64,000 bases of DNA from Escherichia coli (lineage in GTDB: Bacteria; Pseudomonadota; Gammaproteobacteria; Enterobacterales; Enterobacteriaceae), in NCBI RefSeq assembly GCF_965641715.1, contig NZ_OZ282453.1, one strand, 5' to 3'. Positions 43,826 through 61,917 of this stretch are shown here, one piece after another (position 1 is the first letter of the stretch; each line of letters starts with the position of its first letter). The notes below the pieces were generated by a model. The model did not search any database and was not told the origin of the DNA. It saw nothing but the letters and a program-made list of their open reading frames with translations. A program made the position numbers and the translations under genes.

Positions 43826-43835
43826 TCTGACGGCC

Positions 43836-44021
43836 TCACCAGCGATTGCGAAAACATTCCATGACCTCGCGGTCACGGTCGGTTAATCGCTTCGCTGTGG
43901 TGCGTTCTGTGCGCCCTGTCCTGTTGGCTTTGTGCCCTGTCTCCTGTGTCTTCCATAAGTCACGCTGCCTTATCAGTCCACGTATCAGCCTGTTTTGCTC
44001 CTGTTCAGTCATCATCGCCAT
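43836..44021 (-). CDS. Small hypothetical ORF between HNH and terS
   Basis: About 61 aa MAMMTEQEQNRLIRGLIRQRDLW...; basic protein; may not be expressed. Confidence 0.25.
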   Translation of the reverse strand: MAMMTEQEQNRLIRGLIRQRDLWKTQETGHKANRTGRTERTTAKRLTDRDREVMECFRNRW

Positions 44022-44445
44022 ACATCCAGTCGTTACGGTGTGCCGCCCGTTCTTCCTGCTCGCGATACATACCCGCCTTACGGTTCGCTTTCGTGGCTGG
44101 ATCTTCCCGTGTTGTCTTACGGTTATGGCACGTCTGGCACAATGCCTGGTGGTTCCACTCAGGCCAGAAGAGAACATCACCGCCGCCATTGATGGGAATG
44201 ATGTGATCCACCACAAGAGCTGGCGTATAAATCCCCTTAGCCAGACAACGCACGCATAACGGATTTTTGCTCAGGTACAGGGCGCGGTATTTGTCCCACT
44301 GTCGGGAATACCCGCGCGCGCGGCGGTGTCCCCGTCTGGCATCCTCTGCACGCCATGCAGCCCGCCTGTGATCTTCGCACTTGCCGGACTTCACGCGCTT
44401 ATTACAGCCCGGCTCAGTGCATCGCCTTAATGGTTGCCACGGCAT
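44005..44445 (-). CDS. HNH endonuclease (packaging-associated, satellite copy)
   Basis: 146 aa; Cys-rich HNH core VDHIIPINGGGD...CQTCHNRKT; sits next to terS. Confidence 0.85.
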   Translation of the reverse strand: MPWQPLRRCTEPGCNKRVKSGKCEDHRRAAWRAEDARRGHRRARGYSRQWDKYRALYLSKNPLCVRCLAKGIYTPALVVDHIIPINGGGDVLFWPEWNHQALCQTCHNRKTTREDPATKANRKAGMYREQEERAAHRNDWMYGDDD

Positions 44446-44744
44446 CAGTACACCCCTACATCACGATAAACCGACCAGAGCGCAGAAATAGCCATAGGCA
44501 GTTCAGACTGCTCCACAGGTGAAACCGCTTCCCTGTTCTCGTACAGGAAAGCGATGTACATCAGGCAACCAACACGTATTGCCGGGGTAAATTCCAGCCC
44601 GTCTTCAAAACGTTTCCCGATATGCTTCTGGCAGGCTTCCAGCGCCGCATCGGTATACATTTTCAGAAGTTCGCCCTCACCTGAGAAGTCATCAAGGCGA
44701 AGATGTGCCCTGACTTCATCAGGTGTAATTTTTTCTTCACTCAT
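44445..44744 (-). CDS. gp6-like head-tail connector protein (satellite copy)
   Basis: ORF 44445-44825; likely start MSEEKITPDEVRAHLRLDDFSGEGELLKMYTDAALEA. Confidence 0.6.
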   Translation of the reverse strand: MSEEKITPDEVRAHLRLDDFSGEGELLKMYTDAALEACQKHIGKRFEDGLEFTPAIRVGCLMYIAFLYENREAVSPVEQSELPMAISALWSVYRDVGVY

Positions 44745-46041
44745 CTTTTTCACCTTTAATTTCCACCGTCTGCTTCCATGCCTGGCTGAACTCGTCACCA
44801 CCTTCACGCGGCGGCATCCCCTCACGTTCGCGGGCTTCGTTCGGATTCATGATCCCGTTCTTAATCCCTTTCTCATACGTGGCGTAACGCTCGGTTGGAG
44901 TAGCGCGCAGTAAATCGGCTGAATCAAACTCAACCAGATAACGGGTACCAGGTATGGGAGAAGCCACCAGCAAAGCGGCCTTAATTTGCTGTTCGAAGTT
45001 CGCCAGCCATGGGCGCATTGTCATGGTCAGAAACGCGCGGCTTGCCTCACTGAAATTGCTGTAGGTGCTGTTGCTGTATTCCTGAAGAAAAATCGGCGAC
45101 ACGTTGAACATCCGGGCGATGTCTTCAATGGAGAAGCGACGGGAGGCCAGCCATTCTGCATCCTGGTTACTCATCCCCAGTTGCTTGTAATCCATACCCC
45201 CTTCAAGGATTGGCGTTTTTCCGGCATTTTTCGCCCCCTTGTAGCGTTCCAGGGCGTCTAATGCCTGTTTACCTTTCACGCCGTCCAGCCATTCGCCTGA
45301 CGTGATAATCCCTGCCGCCATCATGCCATCTTTCATAATGCTGGCTCCGTGACGCTGTTGAGCAAGGCCAAGCCCCAGCGCCTCACGGCAAATCGTGACA
45401 GGGGAGCGCCCCAGAAAGCCATCATCCGAGGCATAGCGGAGATGCAGAACTTCTTCCTGCAAATACGTGCGCACCGTTCCTGTATAGGGTTCGGTGATGG
45501 TATAGCGGTATTTGTGTGCGCCAGTGCGTTCCGGTACAACACACCCCGGCGCATAAGGATGAAGTGATTTTGGCTGACCGTCCCGCCCCCACTCAATAAC
45601 CGCATAGGCGTTACCGTTCAGCAGGCAGTGACGCATCATTGTGCGTTTAAACTGGTAAGGTGTCTGGCACGAATTAGGCTGCTCATTCAGCAGAATATCG
45701 ACCGGGTGACTGTCCAGCCATTCCCGCGCCTCCCTGCCCTTGTCATTGCGTACCAGATACAGATAACACGGCATCGTGGCCACCGCCTCAGCGATGACAG
45801 AAACCGCGTTCATCACAGCAGGCAATGATTCAGCCGTCCCGGCAGAAACATATTCTCCGGATCCGGTATTCGGTACGCCGGACAGCGCCAGAAAATCATC
45901 AATGGACAGGTTACGCAGATCGCTTTTTTTACGACTAAAAGGCCACCACATATCACAACCCCGCCAGTTCAGCCCAGCGATGACGATTATTTCCTGTCGG
46001 GCGTAATTCAGGGTGCTGTGCAAACAACGAACGGTGGGCAA
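44737..46041 (-). CDS. Portal protein, HK97 family (satellite copy)
   Basis: 434-aa ORF; FSIEDIARMFNVSPIFL region; true start may be MWWPF near 45951. Confidence 0.85.
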   Translation of the reverse strand: MPTVRCLHSTLNYARQEIIVIAGLNWRGCDMWWPFSRKKSDLRNLSIDDFLALSGVPNTGSGEYVSAGTAESLPAVMNAVSVIAEAVATMPCYLYLVRNDKGREAREWLDSHPVDILLNEQPNSCQTPYQFKRTMMRHCLLNGNAYAVIEWGRDGQPKSLHPYAPGCVVPERTGAHKYRYTITEPYTGTVRTYLQEEVLHLRYASDDGFLGRSPVTICREALGLGLAQQRHGASIMKDGMMAAGIITSGEWLDGVKGKQALDALERYKGAKNAGKTPILEGGMDYKQLGMSNQDAEWLASRRFSIEDIARMFNVSPIFLQEYSNSTYSNFSEASRAFLTMTMRPWLANFEQQIKAALLVASPIPGTRYLVEFDSADLLRATPTERYATYEKGIKNGIMNPNEAREREGMPPREGGDEFSQAWKQTVEIKGEKDE

Positions 46042-46513
46042 TCTCCACGCCGGATTCGGGATAAGCAGGCATCGACGTTATCGTGATTTCACGGAGTTCT
46101 GCGGCGGTAACAGTGCGCAGATACGGTTTTTGCGCGATATTCCACTCTTCGCATAATGCGCGAAAGCCAAAGCTCATTCCTGTAATGTCGCCACGCTCCA
46201 CCAGCGTAAGCACATCTTTTCCAAGCTGGGTATCAGGCGGTGTCAGTTCAAAACGTAGCCCGGTGTTGTCCTCAGTCAGTACCAGTGTTCCGGATTTGGT
46301 GCGCCCCAGCAGTCGGGTATAGTCATGCTCATACAGGCAGCGCACATCATTACCCGCCGCCAGATAGTCAGCAAAAGCCCCCGGCGTGAACTGTTCGCGG
46401 AATTCGTCCCAGATAATTTCTGAAAGGCTGTTCCAGCGAACGGCATACCCCACCAGCTTTTTATTGCTGGCGGTCAGTTCAGATGTGCGGATTTCAAAAT
46501 CGGTGTTTTTCAT
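45953..46513 (-). CDS. Prohead protease, HK97 family (satellite copy)
   Basis: 186 aa; VGYAVRWNSLSE...FTPGAF motif region. Confidence 0.85.
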   Translation of the reverse strand: MKNTDFEIRTSELTASNKKLVGYAVRWNSLSEIIWDEFREQFTPGAFADYLAAGNDVRCLYEHDYTRLLGRTKSGTLVLTEDNTGLRFELTPPDTQLGKDVLTLVERGDITGMSFGFRALCEEWNIAQKPYLRTVTAAELREITITSMPAYPESGVEIAHRSLFAQHPELRPTGNNRHRWAELAGL

Positions 46514-46567
46514 CGGTGTACTCCATAAAGCTGAAAAAGGAGGCCGCAGCCTCCTCCTTACTCATGA

Positions 46568-47737
46568 CTAGCCAGCTTTCATTTCCAGAATTTTGATGGC
46601 GTTTGAATCCACCACACCACCGCCCAGATATTTATCCGTGTGGACCTTGTAGAATCCGGGCTCAGTAATGTTGTCCGGTCGGGTGCGAATCCCTGTTACA
46701 TGATCAACGATGAAATAACCACGACTGAAATCGCCAACCGCTAGCGGTGCTTTTCCTGCGCCGATGTCCGGCATGGACTCCAGGCAGAAAACAGGACGAC
46801 CAAGCAACATATCCGGCGCACCTTCTTTAAGGCTGTCGCGCCAGATATAATCGCCATTCTCATTTTTCAGCTTCTGTAGTGTCCCTGCCGTGCCCGAGTT
46901 CATCACCCAGACGGCATTTTTGCGGTATTTCGCTTTCAGCTTGTAGAGAATGTCGATCAGTTCGTCCGCTGTAATGGCGGTTCCACTTGCCGCTACCACT
47001 TTTTCAATGGTGCCAAAAGCGCGGGTTTTGTCACTGGTCGCCGCACGGGTGTAAGCCATGAAGCCTTTCGGCTTGCCGTTACCGTCGCCATTAACAAAAT
47101 CATCCTCTTCGGTGCTGGCGAACGTGTCGGCAATTTCGGAGGATAACCAGCCCAGAATATCCACCTCTGAAAAATCCAGGATTTCCTGCGTGGTTTTCGG
47201 GTAGGCGTAGATCGGATTCAGCTTGATGGTTACACGTTCAATTTTCGGGGTGTTGGTTTCACTACGTGCGCAGCCTTCTGTGCCTCGTCCTACAGTTGCG
47301 CCGCCAGTGGAAACCAGTTTCTGAAACTCATTTGATTTTGCGGTCTTCACGGTCGCGATCACGCGCATAACACTGTCATCCTGTAGCTGGCGCATGACTT
47401 CGCGATCAAGCTCAGGAATTACGGTATATCCGCCATCCCTGCCGCTGTCAGTGCTGGTGGACAGTGATCGCACATCTCCGGTTACGATGTAGTTACGCAA
47501 TTCATCAGATGATAATTTCTGGATGCCCGTTCCTGGCTTGCTGCGTTCTTCATCAGCCACAGACTCGAGGCGGTAAATTTCTGTGTCGAGGGAATCGGCT
47601 TTTGCACGCAGTTCATCAAACTGTTTGCCCTCGTCATCGTTCAGGCTGCGGTTTTCACTGTCGGCTTTTTCCAGCAGGGATCGCATCTGGTTTTTCAGGG
47701 CGGTTTTTTGCTGGCGGAGTTCGATTAATTTCTTCAT
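46568..47737 (-). CDS. Major capsid protein, HK97 family (satellite copy)
   Basis: 389 aa; coiled-coil delta domain; GDGNGKPKGF motif; diverged from prophage copy. Confidence 0.9.
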   Translation of the reverse strand: MKKLIELRQQKTALKNQMRSLLEKADSENRSLNDDEGKQFDELRAKADSLDTEIYRLESVADEERSKPGTGIQKLSSDELRNYIVTGDVRSLSTSTDSGRDGGYTVIPELDREVMRQLQDDSVMRVIATVKTAKSNEFQKLVSTGGATVGRGTEGCARSETNTPKIERVTIKLNPIYAYPKTTQEILDFSEVDILGWLSSEIADTFASTEEDDFVNGDGNGKPKGFMAYTRAATSDKTRAFGTIEKVVAASGTAITADELIDILYKLKAKYRKNAVWVMNSGTAGTLQKLKNENGDYIWRDSLKEGAPDMLLGRPVFCLESMPDIGAGKAPLAVGDFSRGYFIVDHVTGIRTRPDNITEPGFYKVHTDKYLGGGVVDSNAIKILEMKAG

Positions 47738-47973
47738 GAAGGTTTTCTCGTATTGGTTAAGATTCAGGACGTGAAACCAACACGGAGGGAGCGCCGCCCG
47801 ACACTCTCGGCATCTCGCAGATCAACCCGGCATCGCGCAGGGGGTCAGGCGGCATTGTGGCGGCTCACGTCTGAGTGCCACACGCCAACATATACATAAA
47901 AATCAGTATGTAAACATCAGCCAGAATCACCGAACAACCTGGAACAACCACGAACAAATAATTTACAAAACCT

Positions 47974-48000
47974 GAAAAAAAGACCTGGAGAAAATCCAGG
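47974..48000 (-). terminator. Rho-independent terminator separating the satellite replication block from its capsid operon
   Basis: Hairpin CCTGGA-gaaaa-TCCAGG followed on the minus strand by TCTTTTTTT; lies between the 82-aa ORF and the capsid gene. Confidence 0.5.
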
Positions 48001-48011
48001 CCTTTATCGCT

Positions 48012-48260
48012 TTATTGTTTCACTGGATCCCGCATTCTGCGTCTTATTTTCCACAGATATTCGATCATCGCTTCCACCTGCTCACGATTGGTTGCGAAAA
48101 TTTCCCCGGTCAGTGAGCTGCGCAGAAAATCATGATGATCCACAACAAACAACGCATCGGAAGAAAGCAGACGGCGATATTTTTTTGCTGTCGTGGTTTC
48201 CAGATCATCAAAACCATGAAACTTTTTATGTTGCTGGACTTCTTCAAATGTCACTGGCAT
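48012..48260 (-). CDS. Hypothetical small protein
   Basis: 82-aa ORF MPVTFEEVQQHKKFHGFDDLETT... Confidence 0.4.
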   Translation of the reverse strand: MPVTFEEVQQHKKFHGFDDLETTTAKKYRRLLSSDALFVVDHHDFLRSSLTGEIFATNREQVEAMIEYLWKIRRRMRDPVKQ

Positions 48261-48793
48261 GTATCCCCCTTTGCCGCCCGGCGCTGGCGCTTGTGCTTCT
48301 CATTCAGCGCCATCAGCCGCGTTTCTGCCTCCTGCTGTTCCTGTGGTGTCACTTCCCCACATGGCTGGCCTTTCAGGTCGTATCGTACCCCACCAGCAAC
48401 CAGGGCGCGGTAATAGCGCGGAGACTGCGCATAAGATGCCAGCGTCGCACGTAATGCCCCCGGCCCGAATGCCAGCCCCCTGACGGCGAGATCCTGCATC
48501 AGGTCGTCGAATATCCCCACCTTAAGCGGCTTCGGTGCTTCCCTGTTGAATAAGTCAGGCCACATCTCAGTGAGGCGGTTAACGCGCCTGCGGTTTTTGC
48601 GCTGGCGTTTGGTCATATGCCGCCACGGTGTCACCCCTGTGGGCTGCCCTTTGCGGCTCTGCTGTGCGTTCTGATTGCCGGGTATCACTTTATGCGCCGA
48701 TGTGGTTTTATCCCGCTCTTGCGCCGCCTGCGTCGTTTTCTGCGGCGTGCCGTAAATGCCTTTCGGTTTTCGGTTAATGGTCAGCTTTGTCAT
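48251..48793 (-). CDS. FinO/ProQ-domain RNA-binding protein (putative)
   Basis: 180 aa; PLKVGIFDDLMQDL...RATLASYAQSPRYYRALVAGGVRYDLKGQPCGEVT matches the ProQ/FinO N-domain pattern from memory. Confidence 0.55.
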   Translation of the reverse strand: MTKLTINRKPKGIYGTPQKTTQAAQERDKTTSAHKVIPGNQNAQQSRKGQPTGVTPWRHMTKRQRKNRRRVNRLTEMWPDLFNREAPKPLKVGIFDDLMQDLAVRGLAFGPGALRATLASYAQSPRYYRALVAGGVRYDLKGQPCGEVTPQEQQEAETRLMALNEKHKRQRRAAKGDTCQ

Positions 48794-48957
48794 GCCTTCC
48801 CCTGTAATTACTCTGTTCGCTGTTGTGAATTAAAACGGTATGTTATCCCCGTACAGGTCATCGTGCTGGCCTGTCTGTTGTTTTGCCCTGTTCAGTGCGT
48901 CAGTGGCCTGCCCCTGTTGGCCTTTTTTGCCGCCCGGTCGCGCCGTTCTCGCACTGA

Positions 48958-49254
48958 TTACGCTGTCTGCGATGACCTGCCAGCCCTGCCGCGTTTCGCC
49001 GTTCTGCCCTGTCCACTGCTTACCTGCATGTTACCCGCCACGCTCACCAGTTCGCCTTTGCGGTGTTTTGCCAGTGCGTCGGCCTGTCTGCCAAACGCCA
49101 GGACGGATAACCACATCGTCGCCGTTCCGTCATCTGCCTGGCTGCATGGCAGGGGAACCGCCATACTCGCCATCGCCATTTGTGTTCCCTTGCTGGTGGT
49201 CTTTAACTGCGGGTCAGCCACCAGCCGCCCGTAAGCCGCTATCTGTGCTGTCAT
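48958..49254 (-). CDS. SSB-like OB-fold protein (short)
   Basis: 98 aa; GRLVADPQLKTTSKGTQMAMASMAV...WLSVLAFGRQADALAKHRKGELVSVAGNMQ follows the SSB OB-fold pattern. Confidence 0.4.
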   Translation of the reverse strand: MTAQIAAYGRLVADPQLKTTSKGTQMAMASMAVPLPCSQADDGTATMWLSVLAFGRQADALAKHRKGELVSVAGNMQVSSGQGRTAKRGRAGRSSQTA

Positions 49255-49317
49255 GCTGTCTGCTCTCCGGTTTTAACGTTGATGGTTACGCTTGTTTACA
49301 CCCTTACGGTGAAATTC

Positions 49318-49442
49318 TGCGGGTTATAATCGCACTTTTGCGGGTTATAACTGCCGTTTTGCGGGTTACGTGCGGGTTATTGATTTCCTTTTTATTCATA
49401 CAGTTAATGCACTTATATACATGATAACCCGCATAACCCGCA
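49318..49442. repeat. Iteron cluster A (candidate satellite replication origin): four direct TGCGGGTTAT-like copies, an AT-rich spacer, two inverted copies
   Basis: Direct copies at 49318, 49339, 49359, 49371; inverted ATAACCCGCATAACCCGCAA at 49423-49442; immediately 3' of the primase gene. Confidence 0.65.
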
Positions 49443-49464
49443 ACTTTTCACCTCACACAGGGGG

Positions 49465-51588
49465 TTAATCTTCTGCCTCAGGCTGGAACATCAGCACGTA
49501 AAAAACATGCTGCTTCCCCCCAATTTTGCCGAGCGCCTTTTTCTTGTAACGGCGATCGTTACCCGCTTCCAGCATTCCGGCAGCACTCAACGCGCGGGCA
49601 AAGTGAGACGGATTAAATCCCTGTGCTATCTCACCCTCAAATACATGCGGGAACGTGTAAAAACGGAACTCGTCATCTTCGTTTCTGATACTCCCCTTTC
49701 TGTATCCGGCAAGTTCTTTAATCGATAAATCACGCTCGTCGGTATTGGGCCACGGAAGGTATCTGCTGAATCCGAACGACGCTAAAAAAGCTTCTGCCTG
49801 TTCAACCATCTGTTTAAATTCCCTGTTACCCGTGCCGAACTCCTTCACCCAGGCATTAAAATTATGCTGTATGGCATCGCGGCATTCCTGCTCATCCCAG
49901 CCAGTAACATGACCTGAAAGCACAAGCGCGGCCTCCAGTATGGCAAATCGCTCCCCCACACGGTGAACCTGTTCGCCGTAGCTCTCCGGTATCAGGTTGC
50001 GCCACCGCTCACGGCATGTCCTTACCGTGTCCTTTGCCTCCTGCTGGTGTTCTGCCAGCCATTTAACCCACTCACGACCCGCCGCCCCGTGATTTTCTGT
50101 CCAGGCATCCTTTAACGCGTCTGCGTGCGCCTTTCCGGTGCTGTATTCGTGAAATTGCGTGGCTTTTTCCATCGGAACGTTAAGCAGGCGGACAAGCTGC
50201 CCCGCTTTGACTTTTATCCCCTCCGTTTTGAGGAATGTCTCAACGTCCATTTCTCCGGTGCTGATTGCCACCGTGCGCCAGTGTTTGATCTCCCTGTTGC
50301 CGCCGTCCTTCGCCCCCTGTAATTTCCCCGAACCGTTAAACAGCGTATAGGCTGACGTGGACACCTCCCGCGCGTTTCCGGCCTGGCCTATTTCATCCAG
50401 GGGTAAAAGCCCGTCATTGTGTGCCTCTGCTTCGTTGGCGATACCTAACGCTGTGCCGTACCAGGTCAGCCGCTGCGCGTCCGGCTCTCCCCATAAACTT
50501 GATGCGATGTTCTGTGTGGTGGTTTTCCCTGCCGATGACTGTTCGAAAAGATGTACCCCGAAGCCGTCAGCGCCCACCAGCCCGATTAATGGTGCGGATA
50601 ACGATACCGCCACACCCAGCATCATGGACGGATTACCACCAGCCAGCCGCGCAACGGTATCGCGCCAGCCCTCCGCCGTTCCTGCCACGGAATAGCCATT
50701 AACAGCAGCCGTTTTTCCGGTAAACAGGACTGGCTTTTCGCAATCACCAATGACCGAACCGTCCGGCATGATGTACGCGCCAAAATGCCAGCCCGTTGTT
50801 GTGCTTAACTGCCATTCCTCATGGCTTCCGCTTAACTGCATCCAGTCAGCCAGGATAGCCCTGTATTTACCGTTGGTTGTTACGTTCAGTCCGTGGTCTT
50901 TCAGCAACCGCCAGCCGTCACGGTCGCCAATGCCACCGCACGGAACCGCCATTGTGATGACTTCATGGTTTGCTAATTTTTTCCAGCGCATCACGCGGTA
51001 ATGCTCTTTACCGATTGTCCCCGTTCCCAGTAGTTCAAGCGGGGAACATAACCACGTCTCAGGCCGGATAATTTCGCCTGACTGCTTATCCACTTTTGGC
51101 GTTACCCAGAAAACACCATCGGCGCGACTTTCAACGCGGGGCTTTAATTCATCATCGCCCTGGATTTCTGTGATTTTTTTCTTTAAGGGCAACACCAGAC
51201 TTTCCCCGCGCTCGTATTCGTCTTTGAGGCGAGGCAACTGGTCGGATAAATCCGCCGGGCTGATGTCAGTTATCCCCGCGTATTCGTATACGGTCTTCAC
51301 GCCAGCCACAGCCAGCAACGTGACGATCTGTGTAAGGCTACGTTCAGTGATGTGCCCTGCGCGGTAAACACGCACACACTGACGGCTATCATCAATAATT
51401 TGATAACCGGTAATATCTTTCAGGTGTTCATCTGACAGAACGACAGGCGGCACATTGTCGGCGGCAATATGCTTACCTGCCCATTCCTGCCACTCTTTCG
51501 CATGGCTCCACGCATCACTACCCGCAAAGATGATAACCTCCGTCATTTTGTCGGCTGGCTGGTGCTTTAAGTTTGGTGCGCGCTTCAT
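49465..51588 (-). CDS. Replication primase/helicase with P-loop NTPase
   Basis: 707 aa; Walker A-like SSAGKTT; largest non-structural gene; adjacent to iterons. Confidence 0.75.
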   Translation of the reverse strand: MKRAPNLKHQPADKMTEVIIFAGSDAWSHAKEWQEWAGKHIAADNVPPVVLSDEHLKDITGYQIIDDSRQCVRVYRAGHITERSLTQIVTLLAVAGVKTVYEYAGITDISPADLSDQLPRLKDEYERGESLVLPLKKKITEIQGDDELKPRVESRADGVFWVTPKVDKQSGEIIRPETWLCSPLELLGTGTIGKEHYRVMRWKKLANHEVITMAVPCGGIGDRDGWRLLKDHGLNVTTNGKYRAILADWMQLSGSHEEWQLSTTTGWHFGAYIMPDGSVIGDCEKPVLFTGKTAAVNGYSVAGTAEGWRDTVARLAGGNPSMMLGVAVSLSAPLIGLVGADGFGVHLFEQSSAGKTTTQNIASSLWGEPDAQRLTWYGTALGIANEAEAHNDGLLPLDEIGQAGNAREVSTSAYTLFNGSGKLQGAKDGGNREIKHWRTVAISTGEMDVETFLKTEGIKVKAGQLVRLLNVPMEKATQFHEYSTGKAHADALKDAWTENHGAAGREWVKWLAEHQQEAKDTVRTCRERWRNLIPESYGEQVHRVGERFAILEAALVLSGHVTGWDEQECRDAIQHNFNAWVKEFGTGNREFKQMVEQAEAFLASFGFSRYLPWPNTDERDLSIKELAGYRKGSIRNEDDEFRFYTFPHVFEGEIAQGFNPSHFARALSAAGMLEAGNDRRYKKKALGKIGGKQHVFYVLMFQPEAED

Positions 51589-51899
51589 TTTGCCTTTCCC
51601 CGTTCACGAATAATTTCACGTACTGCCTTAATGCGTTCCATTCCTGTAACGCGCATGATTCTGTCGATGTCGCTTAATTCTGCTGGTGGTGCTTTACTTA
51701 CCAAGGTGAACTCCCTGTCAAAGCGCATATGTGACGACACGCAGGGATGCGCATAACCTTCGCGGATATAGGTCACACGAAAATCATCGACGGTTTTGAT
51801 CGTTATCGTGCTGCCGTATTTATCCTGGAAAATATCGCCGGGGCGGATTTCAGGCCGAGCGGGGCCGCTGGCAGTAAAGCCAGAATTTTTCTTTTTCAT
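51585..51899 (-). CDS. Hypothetical protein
   Basis: 104-aa ORF directly upstream of and overlapping the primase start. Confidence 0.45.
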   Translation of the reverse strand: MKKKNSGFTASGPARPEIRPGDIFQDKYGSTITIKTVDDFRVTYIREGYAHPCVSSHMRFDREFTLVSKAPPAELSDIDRIMRVTGMERIKAVREIIRERGKAK

Positions 51900-51904
51900 G
51901 TTTT

Positions 51905-52153
51905 TTACTCCAGAGGCAGCTTTTTAGCGGCGAGCTCAATATCAGATGTCAGAGAAACCTGTGTATTTGCCAGGTCTAACAACAAAGAAATAAGAATTTC
52001 TTCTCTGCTATCGGATTTATCGGTGCTAAGGCTGTTCATCCACATATTGACGACTTCCCTGATTTTTTTCGCAGAGTGCAGGGCTTCAAATGCCAGGTCT
52101 TCAATATCATGTTTATTTCGCATAATCGCCCCCGCCATTTTCACAATCAGCAA
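51905..52153 (-). CDS. Hypothetical small protein
   Basis: 82-aa ORF. Confidence 0.35.
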   Translation of the reverse strand: MLIVKMAGAIMRNKHDIEDLAFEALHSAKKIREVVNMWMNSLSTDKSDSREEILISLLLDLANTQVSLTSDIELAAKKLPLE

Positions 52154-52358
52154 TCAGGATGGCTTTTGCCTCATTCAGCGCCATATCAGCACTAAATTGC
52201 ATAACAGCCAGTGAGTGAGGAACGAAAGCCCCGGCATATTCTGTTTCGCTGGTGGCGTGCTTATGCGCCTTGTCTGCGATAACAGAAATATCAATCAGCG
52301 CGTGCATCAGCGTTTTGATGGCTTCGGCGGCTGCGTCCGGACGGGTGTTATTGCACAT
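52113..52358 (-). CDS. Hypothetical small protein
   Basis: 81-aa ORF. Confidence 0.35.
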   Translation of the reverse strand: MCNNTRPDAAAEAIKTLMHALIDISVIADKAHKHATSETEYAGAFVPHSLAVMQFSADMALNEAKAILIADCENGGGDYAK

Positions 52359-52554
52359 GGCGCACCTCCTGACGAATACGGGCAGCGAATACCATCACGC
52401 AGCCAGCCGGGGATTGCTGGCGTGCTTCCTGTTCGCTAGTGGCCTCAATGGTAATCACACGCGGTTGTGCCGTGCTCAGGGCGATAAAACGCCAGATGTA
52501 TTTATTCAGGTTGTGCGAGTCCCGCCCTTGCGGGTGTGTGGTATGATTTAACAT
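52348..52554 (-). CDS. Small Icd-like protein (putative host cell division inhibitor family)
   Basis: ATG at 52554 with GAGGT ribosome-binding site 7 nt upstream; 68 aa ending ...SEQEARQQ...FAARIRQEVRHVQ; family assignment is from memory. Confidence 0.45.
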   Translation of the reverse strand: MLNHTTHPQGRDSHNLNKYIWRFIALSTAQPRVITIEATSEQEARQQSPAGCVMVFAARIRQEVRHVQ

Positions 52555-52750
52555 AGCTACCTCGATAATCTTGCTATCGTTGGTGGTTAGAAGCCCGGTT
52601 AGTGTTAGCGCACTGCCGGGTTTCGTCGTTTGTATTTCAATAAAACCATTGGTGTGTTTCATGTTATTTTGGAGTGAAACACACGTCAAGCCTTTTTTGT
52701 ATTTCTTTTTTGTGTATACTGAAACACACCAAATTTGAGGAGTTTCAGTT

Positions 52751-53056
52751 ATGGCGACTACCAACAAAAACGCTAAATCACAATTGACCACCGTCAGAGT
52801 CCCCCACGATGTTATGGAGGGCATGGAATCCGTAAAACTGGACGGCGAAAGCAACGCCGGATTCATAGTAACCGCCATGCGCGGTGAGATCGCCCGCCGC
52901 CAGGCAGAAGGAAGCGGAGAAAATCCCCTGGTTTCTTCGCTCGATGCACTGGCGCAGGTGGAAAAAATTGGAGTCAAGGCTGCCGAGGAGATCGGGCAAC
53001 TCGTCACCGTCGCGCGTGAAGAACTCCAGCGACGCAAGGTCAAAGAGCAGGAATAG
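52751..53056 (+). CDS. Putative transcriptional regulator, divergently transcribed
   Basis: ATG at 52751 with GAGGA ribosome-binding site 9 nt upstream; 101 aa; only confident plus-strand gene in the satellite. Confidence 0.55.
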   Translation: MATTNKNAKSQLTTVRVPHDVMEGMESVKLDGESNAGFIVTAMRGEIARRQAEGSGENPLVSSLDALAQVEKIGVKAAEEIGQLVTVAREELQRRKVKEQE

Positions 53057-53113
53057 CCACTATCAGCGCCATAGTTTGAGGAACGCAGGCGCATTGCTTT
53101 ACAGGACAGCACC

Positions 53114-53293
53114 ATGAGCGACACAGAATCAACCAAAACACCATCACCAACTCGTAAGAGACGACGCAAAAATATAGCGCATGAACATGAATCAGAAAGA
53201 TTCGCACCTTGTTCGTTTGCTCTTGAGAAATTCCTTAAAGAGCACAGGAAAAAGCTCTCGTTGCAAACCTTGGAACGAACCAAATCTGACTGA
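53114..53293 (+). CDS. Small basic protein (possible)
   Basis: 59-aa ORF MSDTESTKTPSPTRKRRRKN... below the ORF-track cutoff; followed by terminators. Confidence 0.3.
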   Translation: MSDTESTKTPSPTRKRRRKNIAHEHESERFAPCSFALEKFLKEHRKKLSLQTLERTKSD

Positions 53294-53358
53294 TCACATT
53301 GCCCACCAGCCGCAAATGTGGCATTGTTGGTGATGCTTTTGTTTTCCCTTGTTCCCAC

Positions 53359-53388
53359 TGGCGACCCTTTTGCGGTCGCCTTTGTTTT
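53359..53388 (+). terminator. Rho-independent terminator of the plus-strand cassette
   Basis: Hairpin GGCGACC-cttttgc-GGTCGCC followed by TTTGTTTTG; a second hairpin plus T-run at about 53484-53515. Confidence 0.45.
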
Positions 53389-53673
53389 GCCTGTTATCCG
53401 GCAATAGTGGCGCTTCGTCACCTGTCTGATATAATTCCACAGCTTATATTCATTTTTTGCGCAGTAGGTTAATTGTTCGCAAGGGCGCTCCGGCAACGGG
53501 GCGCTTTTTGTTTTTACCCACCAGCACAATAAAAATCTTCATTTTCCATTTTTGTAAAATTTCATGCTTTCCGGACGACTGGTCATATGTCATTTTTTAG
53601 CAGAAGATTTTGCCTTGCTGGTGGGTAGCTTCCCGGTCAACACGATGTACCGTATAATCAACACCGCGTGTGG

Positions 53674-54252
53674 TTACTGAATACGCTCACCAAAGTAAAA
53701 CTCAGGCTGGTATTCACGTATCAGCCTTTTTTCTTCTTCCTCCAGCTCACGCTTTTTGCGCTTACATGCCTGTAGCTCCCTCCCCTTCTCACTGGCACTT
53801 ATCTGGTATTGCTCTTTGCGGCGGGAAAAATCCTGTAATGCGCCCCACGGGATACCATAAGCCCCCGTTTTTCTGATACCCGGTATCACATTTCTGAATA
53901 CCCAGTTACTGAAACGATGAGCAAATGTGCCAGGCGTCGTTGCTTTGCGGCTGCGGGCTATTAGTTTGTAGAAACCTGACTCGGAGATAATGCTCATATT
54001 CTGATTTCCTCCGGGGGTGTAAGTTAAATTTACTCCCTTTTCGTCATCATCAAGCATCTGCAACGCCGTACGCGAATTGGTCAATTCCAGCGCAGCACAA
54101 ACATCCTTTGCAACAAACCACGGATCGCCGTTTAGATACACCACACGAACATCCACGCCATCAAAGCGCAGAACGACCAGATCACGAATATCACAGAATT
54201 TTTTCACATGACGTGCGTCACCCTTGCCCGTCACGGCAATATTTTTATTCAT
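53674..54252 (-). CDS. Bro-N domain protein (antirepressor-like)
   Basis: 192 aa; Bro-N pattern RVVYLNGDPWFVAKDVCAALEL...ISESGFYKLIARSRK; C-terminal charged coiled coil. Confidence 0.65.
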   Translation of the reverse strand: MNKNIAVTGKGDARHVKKFCDIRDLVVLRFDGVDVRVVYLNGDPWFVAKDVCAALELTNSRTALQMLDDDEKGVNLTYTPGGNQNMSIISESGFYKLIARSRKATTPGTFAHRFSNWVFRNVIPGIRKTGAYGIPWGALQDFSRRKEQYQISASEKGRELQACKRKKRELEEEEKRLIREYQPEFYFGERIQ

Positions 54253-54309
54253 TGCTTTTTACCTCACATACAAAAAACCCCGCATTGCGTGGTGCGGGGT
54301 TGTCGGTAA

Positions 54310-54588
54310 TTACTTATTGGCGTTTTTGTATGGGCTGTTTACTTCCTTTACTCCTGGCGGATGCATAACCCACCAGAGCACATCAGAGAGCAACCAGGAA
54401 ACAGACACTTTCCCTAAATGAGCACGAGCAGGAAATGCTCCCTCCTGTTCAAGTACCCAACGTCTGCTTCTTGAAAGCCCGGTACGATTGGCACACTCAT
54501 GTTCGCGTATACGGCGATCATACGGTTCGCCATGATCTTTCAGAATCTGAATGCGTTCTTCGGGTGTAGGATAAATAAATTTTTGCAT
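54310..54588 (-). CDS. AlpA-like HTH regulator (second copy)
   Basis: ORF 54310-54618; HTH region ECANRTGLSRSRRWVLEQEGAFPARAHLG. Confidence 0.5.
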   Translation of the reverse strand: MQKFIYPTPEERIQILKDHGEPYDRRIREHECANRTGLSRSRRWVLEQEGAFPARAHLGKVSVSWLLSDVLWWVMHPPGVKEVNSPYKNANK

Positions 54589-54651
54589 AAAAATATCACC
54601 TATAAAAAAACCCGCCAAAAGACGGGTTGATTATATCTCATTTAATTTAGC

Positions 54652-54822
54652 TCAGGGTTTCCATTCACCTTTTACCCATTCCAGCACCTCAGATAAGCGC
54701 CAGACTTTTGTTTGTGGGCCAATACATATTTTTCGTGGAAATTTTCCTTCCTTTTCAAGTAACGATCTGTGTCTCCTGCCAAGAGCGGTTAACCATGCAC
54801 ATTCATCCTCCTTAATCATCCT
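54652..54822 (-). CDS. alpA: AlpA-family excisionase/regulator
   Basis: ORF 54652-54885; HTH WLTALGRRHRSLLEKEGKFPRKICIGPQTKVW; directly downstream of int. Confidence 0.65.
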   Translation of the reverse strand, partial: RMIKEDECAWLTALGRRHRSLLEKEGKFPRKICIGPQTKVWRLSEVLEWVKGEWKP

Positions 54823-54850
54823 GTCGATTGTTTCATCATTTTCAAGTTCT

Positions 54851-56074
54851 TCACGCGTAACTATTTGAATCATTACTGTCACCACTAATTTGCTTATTCA
54901 GATAGTCGTACCACCAGTTCATAGCTTCTTTTTTTCTGTCCATATACTGGCTTCTGTTATAAACCCCGGCAACACCGCCTAATGTGTGCCCAAGCAACTG
55001 TTCAACCACATTATGTTCAAAACCATGATCACTTAGTTTTGTGGCAAACACTCTTCGCATATCATGCGCCGTCCATTTCTCCGAGTGTTTCATCCTTTTC
55101 CATGTCTTACCGATAGTTACGCTTGCCGTACACTGACGCATATCAAACCCAATCACATTTTCTTTGTTACCTGTTATTTTTTTTAACGTAACTAACCAGT
55201 TAAACATGCCATCAGGAATCGGTCTGATTATTTCCCTGCCATTTTTGCTATGATCAGCGGGAACGCGCCATAATTTCTTATCAAAATCCCACTCTACCCA
55301 GGACGACAGTAATACTTCTGACAGTCGACAACCAAAAACTACCAGGAAACGTAAAATAATTCGGTTTTCATATGATAATTCGTGATTGTCATAATCAGTA
55401 TTAATACTTCGCCATAAATCTCTGATTTCATCATCTGTTAAAACCCTGCTTCTTCGCGCAGACTTTTTTCCCACATCACAGACCTCAAGATCATCAATTT
55501 CATGACTAATCGCGTATTTTCTTACCCTACAAAATTTAAGCGCCTGTTTTGATATACGCAACAAAGCTCCGGCCTGTACAGGTGCTACTTTTTTTATTTT
55601 GTCAAAACACTTAATCCACATAGATATAGAGCAATCACTAAGTGGTACATGACCAATCACCGGATAAATATGTTTACCAAAGCACTGCCTGATATGTTCT
55701 GCTCCCCTACGCTTATCCATTGCATAATTATCAAGCCAGTATTCAAGTGCCTCACGAACGGTAACAGGTTGCAAGGTGGCTTCCCGTTCAATTTTTATCT
55801 GAATCCGTGGATCTCTGCCCTCCGCAAGCCAGGTTCGACACTGATCGCGCATCTCTCTCGCTGATTTGAGACTCAGATCAGGATATTTTCCAAGTGTCAG
55901 CCAGATGGGCGCGGTTCCCCTTCCCGCCAGTCTGTAAAAGAAAACAAAACTAACACATCCGTATTTACTGACCCGTACCGAAAGCCCGTTACCATCAGCG
56001 ATGGTTTCCTGCCTCTCACTCCTGCGCCCAAGCAGGGAACGAAGTTTTTTATCGCTCAGTTTGTTTAGCGCCAT
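54851..56074 (-). CDS. int: Tyrosine integrase, P4 type
   Basis: ORF 54851-56110; likely start MALNKLSDKKL; arm-binding N-domain; catalytic C-domain with HxxR and terminal Tyr region. Confidence 0.9.
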   Translation of the reverse strand: MALNKLSDKKLRSLLGRRSERQETIADGNGLSVRVSKYGCVSFVFFYRLAGRGTAPIWLTLGKYPDLSLKSAREMRDQCRTWLAEGRDPRIQIKIEREATLQPVTVREALEYWLDNYAMDKRRGAEHIRQCFGKHIYPVIGHVPLSDCSISMWIKCFDKIKKVAPVQAGALLRISKQALKFCRVRKYAISHEIDDLEVCDVGKKSARRSRVLTDDEIRDLWRSINTDYDNHELSYENRIILRFLVVFGCRLSEVLLSSWVEWDFDKKLWRVPADHSKNGREIIRPIPDGMFNWLVTLKKITGNKENVIGFDMRQCTASVTIGKTWKRMKHSEKWTAHDMRRVFATKLSDHGFEHNVVEQLLGHTLGGVAGVYNRSQYMDRKKEAMNWWYDYLNKQISGDSNDSNSYA

Positions 56075-56093
56075 GTGATTTATAACCCGTTTT

Positions 56094-56116
56094 TGCAATA
56101 CACAGTGCAATACACA
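56094..56116. repeat. Tandem TGCAATACACAG x2 near the satellite right end; candidate integrase arm site
   Basis: Same motif as 41271-41292; 20-40 bp upstream of the int start. Confidence 0.45.
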
Positions 56117-56245
56117 AATGATGAAAACAGCCAGAACCTTCCAGAAAAAACAAAAACGACGAACAAGAAAAAATCTTTTTCTTTCATTTGGTTACTAAAA
56201 AAATCAGGACAGGTCGCACTGTTGTTACGGCGTGATGTTACTTTC

Positions 56246-58877: not shown

Positions 58878-59149
58878 CTCAACAATGGAAAGATTTTTGT
58901 GACGTTCCCGCGTGCGCGTATTACCAGTACGCAGAACAACAGATTAAAAAACACGACCAGCCAGTTACCGGGAAGAATGGTGCCACAGAGAAAGGCAAGT
59001 GGCGGAAGCGCATATACCGTCATCAACAACCAGGCCAGCCATGACATCAGCGGTTTGTGTCTGGAGTCACGACGGCGATAAAAAAAGAGCGTCGGCACGA
59101 TAAACGAGCACAACGCCACATTCAGCAATCCGGGAAGGTTATTTAACAT
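58874..59149 (-). CDS. Small multi-pass membrane protein (holin or antiholin candidate)
   Basis: About 92 aa with three hydrophobic helices; between holin candidate and endolysin. Confidence 0.45.
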   Translation of the reverse strand: MLNNLPGLLNVALCSFIVPTLFFYRRRDSRHKPLMSWLAWLLMTVYALPPLAFLCGTILPGNWLVVFFNLLFCVLVIRARGNVTKIFPLLR

Positions 59150-59531
59150 TGCCGCCTCCTCCGCCCCGCAGGCGGGAGAACAGGCCGGACACCAGTGATG
59201 CAATATCCTGCTGGTGGATGAACGACAGAATCTTTACCGACACCACTGACACCAGTACTGCACACAATGCGTCAACAGGTGCACCGTCAAACCCTGTATG
59301 CTTTACCAGCCAGGACGCCAGAACCTCTGCGCCCAGCACGCCGATAATGAACGACACAAGAAAATGCGCCACCACACGCCAGGCTGAAAGCGCCTGCGGC
59401 ATCGTTGCCACAAATAACGCCCCGGCGAACGCACCAAACACAATCCCGAAATCCGTTCCGGTAAACAGCCCGAAGACCGTCGCTCCACCGAGCGCCGCAG
59501 CCGTGCCGGAACCGGATAAGGGTTCAGACAT
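59139..59531 (-). CDS. Holin-like membrane protein
   Basis: ORF 59139-59654; likely start MSEPLSGSG; Gly/Ala-rich TM helices; first gene of the lysis cassette. Confidence 0.5.
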   Translation of the reverse strand: MSEPLSGSGTAAALGGATVFGLFTGTDFGIVFGAFAGALFVATMPQALSAWRVVAHFLVSFIIGVLGAEVLASWLVKHTGFDGAPVDALCAVLVSVVSVKILSFIHQQDIASLVSGLFSRLRGGGGGNVK

Positions 59532-59896
59532 ACTTTTTCTCCTGTAAATAAAAAAGGGCCACCAGCGGCCCGTAAAAAACACCCCGTCAAAAGCACCGGC
59601 ATCCGCAGATGCCCTTTGTGTGGCGTTATTTGATGCGCACCAGATGTGGCGCAAAGAAATGAAATAAGACTTACCGAAAATTAAGGTTAATTTGAGGATT
59701 TAAACCACTTCTGAAGCTTAGTAGTATGAACATGTCCCCGGAAGGGGGCCAATACTTATTATTCTTCATGGACTTTGTCCCGCGGTCTTAATCCGACGAC
59801 CGCGCTACTTTTTACCCTCTCGCAAATTGCTATCTAAAGGACGTTGTCCCACGAGTATTCCTGGATGCTCGTGTCTTTTTTTGTCCTGAGAAAGGA

Positions 59897-59923
59897 ATAA
59901 AAAAAACCGCCAGATATGGCGGT
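59897..59923 (-). terminator. Rho-independent terminator between the tRNAs and the lysis cassette
   Basis: Hairpin ACCGCCA-gata-TGGCGGT followed by a T8 run on the minus strand. Confidence 0.45.
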
Positions 59924-60858
59924 TGGTCAATGCAAGGGATGAATTTTTTAATTGTTATTAAACCGAGGCGCCGGGTGCCTCCCGAAGTATTCCGTGCTGT
60001 ATGGATACTGTGGTTTCCCGCTAAACCGACTCTATAAACCACCCTCGCGCTGAGGAACGCCCCAATTCATGTTTTTCAACACAGAGAAGCGCATCACTGG
60101 TTACTCAACGCTAAATCCGGCTTCCTGTCGTGGGCAATGCGCCATTTCTGTGTCATAAAAAAATACAGCACTGAATCCGTAACCGATCTCCATTACAGAA
60201 TGAGGCCCAACAAAGGAATTAACGAGATCTGTTCCTCACAAAAAACGCCAGTGCTGTAAAAACTCATCAAAGAACAATGAAGGTACGGAGAACAGGAATC
60301 GAACCAGTATCACTAACCTAAAAGGCTGAAGTAATAGCCACTGTACGATACCTGTATATAGAGCGGGCCTCCGTAACCACAGTAATGATACTATAACAAT
60401 ATGATTAAACGGATGCCAGCAATGACCCGCGAGGCAGCTGGTCATGCGCCAGTGAACACAGACTCGCTGCCTTTTGGGTCGGGAGTAATATTACCGATAA
60501 ATCATATGACATCAAAAAATAATTGGTTTTAAGATTTTAATATGTGTATAAATATGTATCAGATAAATACAAATTATTTTATTTCATCCAGAATTCTGAT
60601 TTTACGCAAGAGATTGCTAAAAAATAACACAAACATGATCAGTTTGGGAACAAACCAATTCCGTTGTCGCAATAAATAACAGGAAATACTCCGGGAACAA
60701 CGGAGCGCAAGAATTACATCAGCAGTGGTTTTTGTAACGTTTAACGTTAATTGTATCGTTGATAGAAAAGCTTTGACGCAATATAGTGAACTAACAGGGC
60801 CTGACGAATAGCCCTATTACGCCGAGCTAATAGCGCTGCCAGCTAAACTTGCATGGAA

Positions 60859-60935
60859 TGGTCCGCCACCGAGGACTCGAACCTCGCACCATCAACTTAG
60901 AAGGTTGATGCTCTATCCCGATGAGCTAGTGGCGG
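60859..60935 (-). tRNA. tRNA-Arg (anticodon UCU)
   Basis: Folded by hand: acceptor CCGCCAC/GTGGCGG, anticodon loop CT-TCT-AA, T-loop TTCGAGT, 3' ACCA. Confidence 0.85.
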
Positions 60936-60936
60936 T

Positions 60937-61012
60937 TGGTGGCCCTTGCTGGATTTGAACCAGCGACCTGGCGATTATGAGTCGCTCGCTCTCACCACTG
61001 AGCTAAAGGGCC
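60937..61012 (-). tRNA. tRNA-Ile2 / Met-like (anticodon CAU), ileX/ileZ-like
   Basis: Reverse complement GGCCCTTTAGCTCAGTGG...GACTCATAATCGC...GGTTCAAATCC...GGGCCACCA; near-identical in layout to E. coli ileX. Confidence 0.85.
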
Positions 61013-61221
61013 GGGCGCAGGATAATAACGTTACAAAATCAATGTTGCAAGCATTCAAAAATCACCTGGTTAAAAATCCCCCTTACTTCCTCCACCAGCG
61101 CATTCACCATGTCTATCCGAGATAAGTGGCACAAAAAACCCGCATTTCGGCGGGTTTTGTTTGCTTTTGCCATCACGTACAAAATCGGCAAAATATCAGA
61201 TTTGCGTGAAATATATGCCTT

Positions 61222-61917
61222 TCAATCTACTTTTGCAACACTTTGCTTTGAAAATGCCGCCTTTTGTTTTGAACGCGTTCTCATTACAAACAATAAAGCC
61301 CCACTATCCAGTCGGTAAAAAATGTGTTTCATTGCAACCCAGTGACGAGTAAATGTTTTGGACCAGTTTTTAGTTGTCACTCCCGCCAGTAATGCCAGCT
61401 CCTGGTATTCATAACCTTCCCCACCAAAAAGTTCTGCTTTTACTGCCTGCGCCGCCAGCCAGATTAATTTTTTCAGGCGTTCCTGCGTTTTCCCTGCAAT
61501 TTTTCTGGTACCGGATTGAGTATTAAATTCATTCCACGCCCACTGTGTTATCGCGATCTGATATTCCCAACAAATACTCCCGCTGTAACACCACAACAAC
61601 CAGGCTTTATGATGTTCTTCAAGAGACAGAACAGCCCGCCGCCACGATGATGTCGAAAACTCAACCGGACTGACCAGAGGAATTGACGTCCCCTTCGCCA
61701 GCGATTGCTTTCCCGGAATTGGTGGATTATCCCGCGTTATCATTTTTCCAGTCACTTCATCGCGGTACCGGATTTTTTTTCGCCTGTAACGCCCTGTATC
61801 GAACATGGCATTCTCTTGCCAGGCTTCAAGCTGACCTTTTGTTGCCCCACTCAAATCAGCGGTGGCGATAATGAGCTGCTCACGCACAAACTGTAAATAC
61901 TGGTTATTCATGCGCAC
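61222..61917 (-). CDS. Late-gene antiterminator Q-like protein (putative)
   Basis: 231-aa ORF directly upstream of the tRNAs and lysis cassette and downstream of rusA. Confidence 0.5.
   Translation of the reverse strand: MRMNNQYLQFVREQLIIATADLSGATKGQLEAWQENAMFDTGRYRRKKIRYRDEVTGKMITRDNPPIPGKQSLAKGTSIPLVSPVEFSTSSWRRAVLSLEEHHKAWLLWCYSGSICWEYQIAITQWAWNEFNTQSGTRKIAGKTQERLKKLIWLAAQAVKAELFGGEGYEYQELALLAGVTTKNWSKTFTRHWVAMKHIFYRLDSGALLFVMRTRSKQKAAFSKQSVAKVD

Follow-up and report, generated by a model that had tools for sequence, protein, structure and literature searches.

In Shiga toxin (Stx) phages, the slot downstream of the antiterminator gene Q and the phage tRNA genes holds the toxin genes, and the prophage considered here raises the question of what such a slot contains when no toxin gene is there. 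The prophage lies in a 64,000-nucleotide stretch of Escherichia coli DNA (contig NZ_OZ282453.1 of assembly GCF_965641715.1; hereafter the window), and its slot occupies 59535-60858. The late-control region of a lambdoid prophage, read on the minus strand, makes up the window's right end, and the late operon is on that strand too, in the order Q, pR'/tR', tRNA-Ile2, tRNA-Arg, slot, holin. On a modest balance of probability, we lean towards the view that the slot has no cargo protein gene and that its conserved spacer holds two late-strand terminators, T3 and T4, together with the gene of an antisense small RNA (sRNA). In the same reading, and with the same confidence, the slot, built from three modules by recombination, forms a non-coding leader ahead of the lysis cassette in a P27-like, stx-negative prophage. 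The reading is carried by the anatomy of the element, its homology and conservation, covariation, strand asymmetry and termination at a paralogue in the K-12 chromosome.

An earlier, sequence-only reading of this DNA had taken the slot to be the Stx toxin slot, and phage comparison bears it out: the Stx2e phage P27 is arranged ileZ-argO-stx2eAB-holin and is homologous in the tRNAs (84%) and the holin (91%). The hairpins are also where that reading placed them, but its strand framing needs amending. The late direction is minus, so the terminators described as plus-strand are antisense to the late operon. The three that it listed (plus strand, about 59776-59812 and 59851-59883; minus strand, 59897-59923) are all recovered by scan and fold, and we call them T1, T2 and T3. 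The slot is 100% identical to the chromosomes of the pig enterotoxigenic E. coli (ETEC) strains ETEC1749 and rl0044.

The candidate sRNA lies on the plus strand. A promoter-like block (59666-59730; for example TTTAAA at 59699-59704, 17 nucleotides (nt), then TAGTAT at 59722-59727) precedes a short form of ~80 nt (59733-59813; fold z = -2.9, with covariation). The short form comprises a 6-bp stem-loop (59734-59749), a conserved unpaired stretch (59750-59769) and a 4-bp mini-hairpin (59770-59780) abutting T1, whose 7-bp stem (59781-59787/59798-59804) encloses a 10-nt loop and is followed by CUAC and U5 at 59809-59813. T1 was recognized from its fold and covariation, having been missed by a simple terminator scan because of its loop length. 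A second unit (59814-59883; scan, fold and covariation) would extend the RNA to a candidate long form of ~150 nt. Here a variable 25-nt stretch separates T1 from a second mini-hairpin (59839-59849), which is followed by T2 (59850-59883), a canonical terminator found by the scan, with its stem at 59850-59873 and U7 at 59876-59882. The T1 unit (59770-59813) and the T2 unit (59839-59883) have on the plus strand the same 4-bp mini-hairpin, GGAC-NTT-GTCC, then C, then the stem, and look like a tandem duplication of one terminator unit.

We compared the slot by BLAST with 5426 complete E. coli genomes, phage records and fetched related loci. The plus-strand element (~59733-59883) is present in about 8% of the E. 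coli genomes and in 74 IMG/VR contigs, the latter collected by a pattern search for the conserved promoter block; in 64 of these 74, tRNA-Gly follows ~563 nt downstream of the block. E. coli W/KO11FL is among the carriers of the module. The covariance model of the element, R1, scores the window's copy at 182.9 bits. Covariation was counted on 47 distinct aligned sequences, over 31 pairs in five helices. Pair cells in this structure are paired in 97.8% of cases, against 36-47% after a shift of the partners by 1-3 columns; both sides have changed in seven pairs, and none of 500 shuffles attains the observed covariation score. Compensatory examples are C-G/U-A in the 5' stem-loop, where the change from C-G to U-A is found in 20 of the 47 sequences, U-A/C-G and C-G/U-A in T1, G-C/U-A and A-U/G-C in the second mini-hairpin, and A-U/G-C and G-C/A-U in T2 (two compensatory pairs in each of helices 4 and 5). 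The unpaired stretch is more conserved than the stems. A strand test found 117 G-U cells on the plus reading against 4 A-C cells, with 97.8% pairing on plus and 90.0% on minus, and this excess of G-U pairs therefore indicates that the structure is kept on the plus-strand RNA.

No reading frame is conserved across the A-type, B-type and K-12 copies. Among the generic features of base-pairing sRNAs, the element has structure, strand bias and a conserved unpaired stretch, it has no conserved open reading frame (ORF), and its putative promoter is a conserved block matching 8 of 12 consensus positions. Rfam, searched at permissive thresholds over the slot and 16 related loci, returned only tRNAs and sub-threshold hairpin matches (STnc100, STnc240, CyaR, isrK/isrJ, mir-983). 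The sequence-only reading had counted the lack of an Rfam hit and a failed cloverleaf prediction as outcomes against itself; both are found, and they show only that the RNA lies outside Rfam and that the tRNA-like segment is a pseudogene. Its suggestion of small RNAs in the slot stands for one plus-strand unit (~59733-59883) on comparative grounds: the unit is conserved, covarying and strand-specific, and the terminator of its K-12 paralogue gives an RNA 3' end. Two IMG/VR relatives that carry the sRNA module, L029 (2338-2540) and L044 (981-1182), have full-score matches to isrK (74 bits) and to C4 antisense RNA (77-78 bits) elsewhere in the contig; such full-score matches are not present in the window.

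The covariance model of this new family also matches, at 43-46 bits, the intergenic region between yodB and serU. The paralogue (K-12 NC_000913.3, ~2,043,015-2,043,191, plus strand; locus L106, 2516-2692) is present in 5417 of the 5426 E. coli genomes, K-12 included. It has the upstream block and the mini-hairpin-plus-T1 in common with the prophage copy, and the body between them differs, a pattern known from sRNA families whose seed varies. There is no RNA annotation at this site in the K-12 RefSeq record, no match to an Rfam family, and no published sRNA at yodB-serU was found in a literature search. Term-seq in K-12 recorded the 3' end of an 'orphan' RNA at 2,043,181(+) (Adams et al. 2021, PMC7815308, supplementary file 1). 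Two of the three conditions gave it, namely lysogeny broth (LB) at an optical density (OD) of 2.0 and the third condition, not LB at OD 0.4 (PMC7815308). This position is the last U of the paralogue terminator's U-run; therefore, this type of terminator works in vivo on this strand in the K-12 paralogue. An in vivo 3' end is known for the K-12 paralogue of T1 only.

These relations raise a broader, and more tentative, possibility. The plus-strand unit could be one branch of an undescribed Escherichia sRNA family in which the promoter block and the terminator are kept while the target-recognition body is swapped, with a core member at yodB-serU and other members in prophages. We regard this as plausible without holding it to be the likelier outcome. 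The prophage members would sit in the tRNA-Gly-to-holin spacer, in about 8% of the E. coli genomes that bear prophages; serU is used by phages as an attachment site, and the prophage form of the module is found in phage SerU-LTIIb. Outside Escherichia, a single contig scan with a 22-base motif gave only two mis-binned contigs carrying the E. coli yodB-serU locus. If the family is real, prophages would supply alternative 'seed' versions of a host regulator.

Several observations weigh against an sRNA gene in the slot. The promoter match is weak, with 8 of 12 consensus positions and a score below the scan threshold, so that the exact -10 and -35 are uncertain, and no single -10/-35 register is common to the K-12 and prophage copies. 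The block itself is strongly conserved, even among variants that are 74% identical overall and also in the K-12 paralogue, but the pattern used to collect the IMG/VR contigs included it, which makes its conservation within that set circular and testable only with the BLAST-collected alignment loci and the K-12 paralogue. The 47 sequences amount to two or three recombining haplotype lineages (effective sequence number 1.42), and the independent compensatory events are few for that reason. The window's variant has a weak T1 (10-nt loop, 4-nt spacer, U5), so the long form of ~150 nt ending at T2 may dominate there; in B-type variants T1 has U7 immediately 3' of the stem. Trans targets predicted within the window are no better than those of shuffled seeds. 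The K-12 paralogue lies ~190 nt downstream of yodB on the same strand, and its 3' end could be that of the yodB terminator; the K-12 RNA could start either at the conserved block or as the yodB 3' untranslated region. Finally, the unit has no similarity to the prophage sRNAs PasA, PasC and PasD, with which it is compared below: blastn-short gave chance matches of <= 14 nt, and model R1 has no match at the loci of PasA, PasC or PasD.

The terminators themselves frame the strongest alternative. T1 to T4 fit the intrinsic (Rho-independent) form, T2, T3, T4 and tR' by scan and T1 by fold (4-nt spacer). T3 (minus strand, stem 59924-59905 and U-run to 59897) is canonical and forms a convergent pair with T2, the two lying 14 nt apart. 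T4 (minus strand, 59571-59546) stands immediately ahead of the holin ribosome-binding site, and tR' (minus strand) has its stem at 61158-61135, then a U-run to 61129; these last two late-strand terminators were absent from the earlier list. Terminator-like sites in 59400-61400 number 12, versus 2.9 +/- 2.0 in shuffles, an excess of about fourfold. T3 keeps a fixed offset in 74 of 74 related IMG/VR contigs, 166-172 nt downstream of the promoter block, and T4 is found in 62 of the 68 related contigs with enough sequence, always 126-131 nt upstream of the block; the alignment has T4 kept ahead of both P27-type and EssD-type holins. As a separate observation, the T4 hairpin region at 59554-59564 reads on the plus strand AAGGGCCACCA, the 3' end of tRNA-Ile2 including CCA (60937-60947, minus strand), an inverted repeat that is probably due to chance. 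A structured late-strand RNA ending at T3 was considered and rejected, as RNAalifold on the 47 sequences retains the terminator only.

The spacer might therefore be thought a terminator and insulator cluster only, in which T1/T2 and T3/T4 block stray transcription in both directions near the lysis genes without any discrete small RNA being produced. All four elements are terminator-shaped, selection on terminators would account for the covariation in T1 and T2, and the weakness of the promoter match fits as well. Such a cluster, however, leaves unexplained the covarying 5' stem-loop with its C-G to U-A change in 20/47 sequences, an unpaired stretch that is better conserved than the stems, and the reappearance at yodB-serU of this upstream block and T1 with another body between them; nor is there an upstream plus-strand gene in need of terminating. 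We consider this explanation unlikely.

A second alternative accepts the RNA and places its action in cis: being a perfect antisense to the late transcript, ~200-350 nt ahead of the holin start, it would pair with the Q-dependent late mRNA, or else its transcription would collide with late transcription, and in either event expression of the lysis genes would be delayed or dampened. The strongest duplex partner in the window is the cis-antisense site, and it is the only strong one; the place directly upstream of the holin is fixed in the 74 contigs whatever the holin type. Yet the module is retained in a relative (L019) where a TerB-DUF3927 moron separates it from the holin, the yodB-serU core paralogue has no lysis genes opposite, and for PasA and PasC, found at that same position, binding to numerous trans targets on Hfq has been reported (PMC8550237). 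On this evidence, action in cis as the main explanation appears rather improbable, and an antisense sRNA gene acting in trans remains the reading we prefer.

How the slot was assembled bears on whether it once held cargo. A segment comprising the holin and a 100-bp leader (59400-59635) is common by BLAST to all P27-type lysis cassettes. The tRNA-Gly-to-holin spacer (59535-60283) is conserved, by BLAST and alignment, in many E. coli prophages, where the common arrangement is contiguous tRNAs (Ile-Arg-)Thr-Gly followed by ~750 bp of non-coding DNA as far as the holin. In a multiple alignment, positions 59535-60360 of the window are collinear with the whole tRNA-Gly-to-holin spacer of 11 other loci; the tRNA-proximal part is more diverged than the rest, and the tRNA is decayed. 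Beyond it lies a rare AT-rich non-coding spacer without assigned strand ('segB-left', 60377-60858; 31 of the 5426 E. coli genomes). BLAST matches fall into 'segA' (59543-60061), found in 438 genomes and in phages SerU-LTIIb and vB_EcoS-683R6, and 'segB' (59972-60858), whose left part (60356-60858) is found in 31 genomes, the full arrangement of the window occurring in six only. The overlap of the two (59972-60061) is likely to be a recombination joint.

The degenerate tRNA-like T-arm that the sequence-only reading had placed at about 60290-60370 on the minus strand is indeed present, with its GGTTCGATTCC at 60306-60296, and we assign 60284-60358 (minus strand) to a tRNA-Gly(UCC) pseudogene from the Rfam tRNA model and from identity to phage tRNA-Gly genes. 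The model (RF00005) matches 60284-60355 at 27.1 bits (E = 0.0076), slightly short of the gathering score of 29 bits. ARAGORN makes no tRNA call at 60284-60358 and reports only tRNA-Arg and tRNA-Met(cat) in the window. Non-standard pairs occur in four stems (acceptor, D, anticodon and T), and UUU stands at the anticodon position, the parental UCC not having been retained. The segment is 75-80% identical to phage tRNA-Gly genes over 65-82 nt, and in the alignment it occupies the same place relative to the same trailer as the intact tRNA-Gly; to judge by these sequence relations, it descends from a tRNA gene. That trailer, 3' of the pseudogene (59925-60283, minus strand), aligns collinearly with the one that follows intact tRNA-Gly in other prophages. 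With the Rfam tRNA model, the copy in strain RM11911 (L004) scores 31.8 bits, and those in ETEC1730 and an IMG/VR relative (L008 and L104) fall below reporting at E <= 1; the copies are one pseudogene at differing stages of decay. In RM11911-type phages an intact tRNA-Gly is located further downstream. A scrap of tRNA-Thr, from its 3' end, may be what remains at 60359-60376.

The spacer between this pseudogene and tRNA-Arg (60377-60858) has an AT-rich core at 60450-60675 (27-29% GC). It is without annotation in any of the 31 carrier genomes, where it occurs in three variants of 82-100% identity with frame-breaking indels, and has no match in phage or plasmid collections. It was also considered as a transposon-like element and rejected, having no terminal inverted or direct repeats. 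In ETEC1730, the counterpart of the spacer is followed by a TerB-DUF3927 moron. The spacer is probably transcribed as a tRNA-gene trailer, because a sigma-70-like promoter at 61050-61022 precedes tRNA-Ile2 and T3 is the first strong late-strand terminator past tRNA-Arg.

As the sequence-only reading stated, no ORF exceeds 70 amino acids (aa): the longest in 59535-60858 are of 70 aa (59830-60042, minus strand, GTG start) and 69 aa. Six of the ORFs in this interval were compared with Pfam and had no match above cut-off, and slot ORFs are broken in relatives by frame-shifting indels or run through the T-runs of terminators. Annotated 'hypothetical proteins' over the tRNA-Gly-to-holin spacer of relatives (L014 2621-2941, L015 2441-2773 and L002 4230-4547) use GTG or TTG starts, lie on either strand and read through terminator T-runs; these are very likely mis-calls over non-coding RNA elements, and the proteins probably spurious. 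Searches by tblastn with 10 cargo proteins (Stx2e A/B, LT-IIb A/B, TerB, DUF3927, a SASA esterase and others of the slot) gave nothing credible in the slot. A remnant of P27 L27 was entertained and dismissed, the single tblastn match (23.5 bits, with a stop codon) being noise.

It had been proposed that the slot contains the remnants of a lost moron, which in its full form would make the hairpins and the tRNA-like piece neutral debris left from toxin or cargo genes. Relatives do carry cargo here (stx2e in P27, TerB and DUF3927, a 174-aa protein, insertion sequence (IS) elements), the tRNA-Gly copy is decayed, and the spacer at 60377-60858 is rare and has no recognizable feature. However, no cargo remnant is found at the protein or DNA level, 59535-60283 is a widespread, ordered module with covarying structure, and the sole decayed gene is the tRNA-Gly of the phage tRNA cluster, which is not a moron. 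In relatives, the cargo (TerB-DUF3927, the 174-aa protein, IS elements) is inserted beside the module and not in place of it, which therefore points to the slot being the cargo-free version and not a gutted one. The lost-moron suggestion is not supported, and we judge the debris explanation very improbable. A small protein from the 21-codon plus-strand ORF present in the window's variant (ATG at 59726, stop at 59789-59791) is barely credible, given that B-type copies lack the start codon and soon meet a stop in this frame, the 3' part that is shared is read in another frame in the K-12 paralogue, and the ORF would cross a terminator stem.

We propose the following working for an antisense sRNA gene flanked by late-strand terminators, in which we infer the promoter, expression in the lysogen, Hfq dependence and action in trans. 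In the lysogen, transcripts from pR' would stop at tR' and those from the tRNA promoter at T3, with T4 serving as a second barrier ahead of the holin that backs T3. Only Q-modified polymerase would pass all the terminators and reach the holin. Between these barriers, the candidate sRNA would be made in the lysogen from its own promoter, as RNAs of ~80 and ~150 nt, and its transcription would not overlap with the tRNA transcripts because T2 and T3 face each other. The RNA may then pair in trans through its conserved unpaired stretch, as has been reported for PasA and PasC.

The surrounding late region supplies the remaining parts. The Q antiterminator gene (61222-61917, minus strand) matches Pfam Phage_antiter_Q at 306 bits, and a consensus scan finds directly after it a pR'-like late promoter (TTGCAA-17-TATATT; 61210-61238, minus strand). 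The predicted pR'-tR' leader RNA of ~75 nt (61129-61204, minus strand; fold z = -3.2) resembles isrJ (27.8 bits) and isrK (23.3 bits) in Rfam, in both cases weakly and below threshold. A sigma-70-like promoter (TTGCAA-17-TATTAT; 61022-61050, minus strand; consensus scan) ends ~10 nt ahead of the mature 5' end of tRNA-Ile2 and suggests a constitutive, Q-independent transcription of the phage tRNAs. These are tRNA-Ile2 (60937-61012, minus strand; anticodon CAT (CAU); ARAGORN, Rfam 72.5 bits), which RefSeq labels tRNA-Ile and ARAGORN reports as tRNA-Met(cat), and tRNA-Arg (60859-60935, minus strand; anticodon TCT (UCU); ARAGORN, Rfam 59.4 bits). On the far side of the slot, the first gene of the lysis cassette encodes a holin (59139-59531, minus strand; Pfam Phage_holin_8, 81.6 bits, and the RefSeq annotation of the near-identical ETEC1749 locus). 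From 59531 the cassette comprises two holins and an M15 endolysin, followed by an HNH gene and a P27-family small terminase.

Elsewhere in the prophage, the large-terminase gene is split by a 15-kb insertion at 41203-56245 (junctions 41202/41203 and 56245/56246) that is absent from ETEC1749, and the two junctions share a repeat of ~14 bp. Among the products encoded by the insert are a P4-type integrase, Bro-N, a DUF927 primase-helicase-like protein and a ProQ/FinO-family protein, as well as an HK97-type capsid, a prohead protease, a portal, a head-tail connector, an HNH protein and its own small and large terminases; no tail genes are found among its ORFs of >= 120 aa. We take this gene set and size to fit a capsid-forming phage satellite of the phage-inducible chromosomal island (PICI) type, presumably integrated in the terL gene of a helper-like prophage.

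Our analysis suggests that the 'empty' toxin slot of a pig-ETEC prophage related to an Stx2e phage is not junk, as it holds a conserved regulatory-RNA candidate and layered terminators that we propose keep the lysis genes silent. If the RNA is expressed, a widespread family would be added to the few prophage sRNAs that rewire host gene expression (PasA-D, AsxR, AgvB, StxS). The candidate family is outside Rfam; ~8% of complete E. coli genomes carry it, and nearly all, K-12 among them, have a paralogue. In K-12 the identity of the 'orphan' RNA ending at 2,043,181 would become a testable question.

Among the closest known systems, the Stx2e phage P27 (AJ298298) has the same slot, tRNA-Ile/tRNA-Arg at 84%, the holin and lysis cassette at 91% and a P27-family small terminase. 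It differs in carrying the toxin genes and the antisense ORF L27 where the window has its spacer, pseudo-tRNA and sRNA module, and the inserts share nothing. IpeX of the cryptic prophage DLP12, which we take to be an sRNA beside nmpC and upstream of the DLP12 lysis genes, would be a further instance of a non-coding RNA in the cargo region ahead of a prophage lysis cassette; the K-12 DLP12 locus (L007) shows no similarity to the slot by BLAST, and its model match, at 11 bits, is at the level of chance. Lambdoid and Stx phages make a short pR'-tR' transcript, lambda 6S RNA or StxS (Sy et al. 2020, PMC7547250). In the window, too, Q, promoter, ~75-nt RNA and terminator are succeeded by tRNAs and cargo slot, but the equivalent element lies at 61129-61204, outside the slot, and its similarity to isrK/isrJ is sub-threshold only.

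Close parallels are also PasA and PasC, prophage Hfq-binding sRNAs of enteropathogenic E. coli E2348/69 (Pearl Mizrahi et al. 2021, PMC8550237; Zhu, Shabalina & Storz 2026, bioRxiv 10.64898/2026.05.13.724894). PasA is 85 nt and PasC 79 nt long, a minor PasA form of 236 nt ends at a second terminator, and both lie between an upstream cargo gene and the holin, antisense to the late genes (PMC8550237 table S6). PasA and PasA-2 have a common 3' end and differ in their first 40 nt, as the Pas study describes, and in the E2348/69 sequence we find a late-strand hairpin and T-run just ahead of the holin. Our candidate agrees with them in layout element by element. It lies in the Q-to-holin cargo region, immediately upstream of the lysis genes, and runs opposite to the late genes; it is predicted to be ~80 nt long with a 3' intrinsic terminator and to have a longer form at a second terminator, as for PasA. 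A late-strand terminator before the holin, members that share their ends while the 5' part differs, and tRNA genes and TerB as common neighbours extend the likeness. The systems differ in holin type and neighbouring genes, and expression and Hfq binding have been shown for the Pas RNAs, whereas the candidate is known from sequence. PasD lies further upstream, in the late direction (PMC8550237 table S6; Zhu et al. 2026), and the T3-ended unit, which likewise follows the late direction and has the upstream genes on one side and the antisense sRNA on the other, recalls the placing of PasD2 relative to PasA. Membership of the T3 unit in STnc100 (RF02076), a family reported to be related to PasD, was rejected, with 13.5 bits in the window and 24.4 bits in relative L005 against a cut-off of 47 and no match in 12 other relatives; the T3 unit conserves only its terminator hairpin. 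By analogy, the plus-strand unit may work like PasA and PasC without belonging to their family. The picture favoured here, in which an inactivated tRNA gene and safety terminators accompany a conserved but as yet unnamed candidate antisense small-RNA gene, is of an ordinary kind for this region of such phages.

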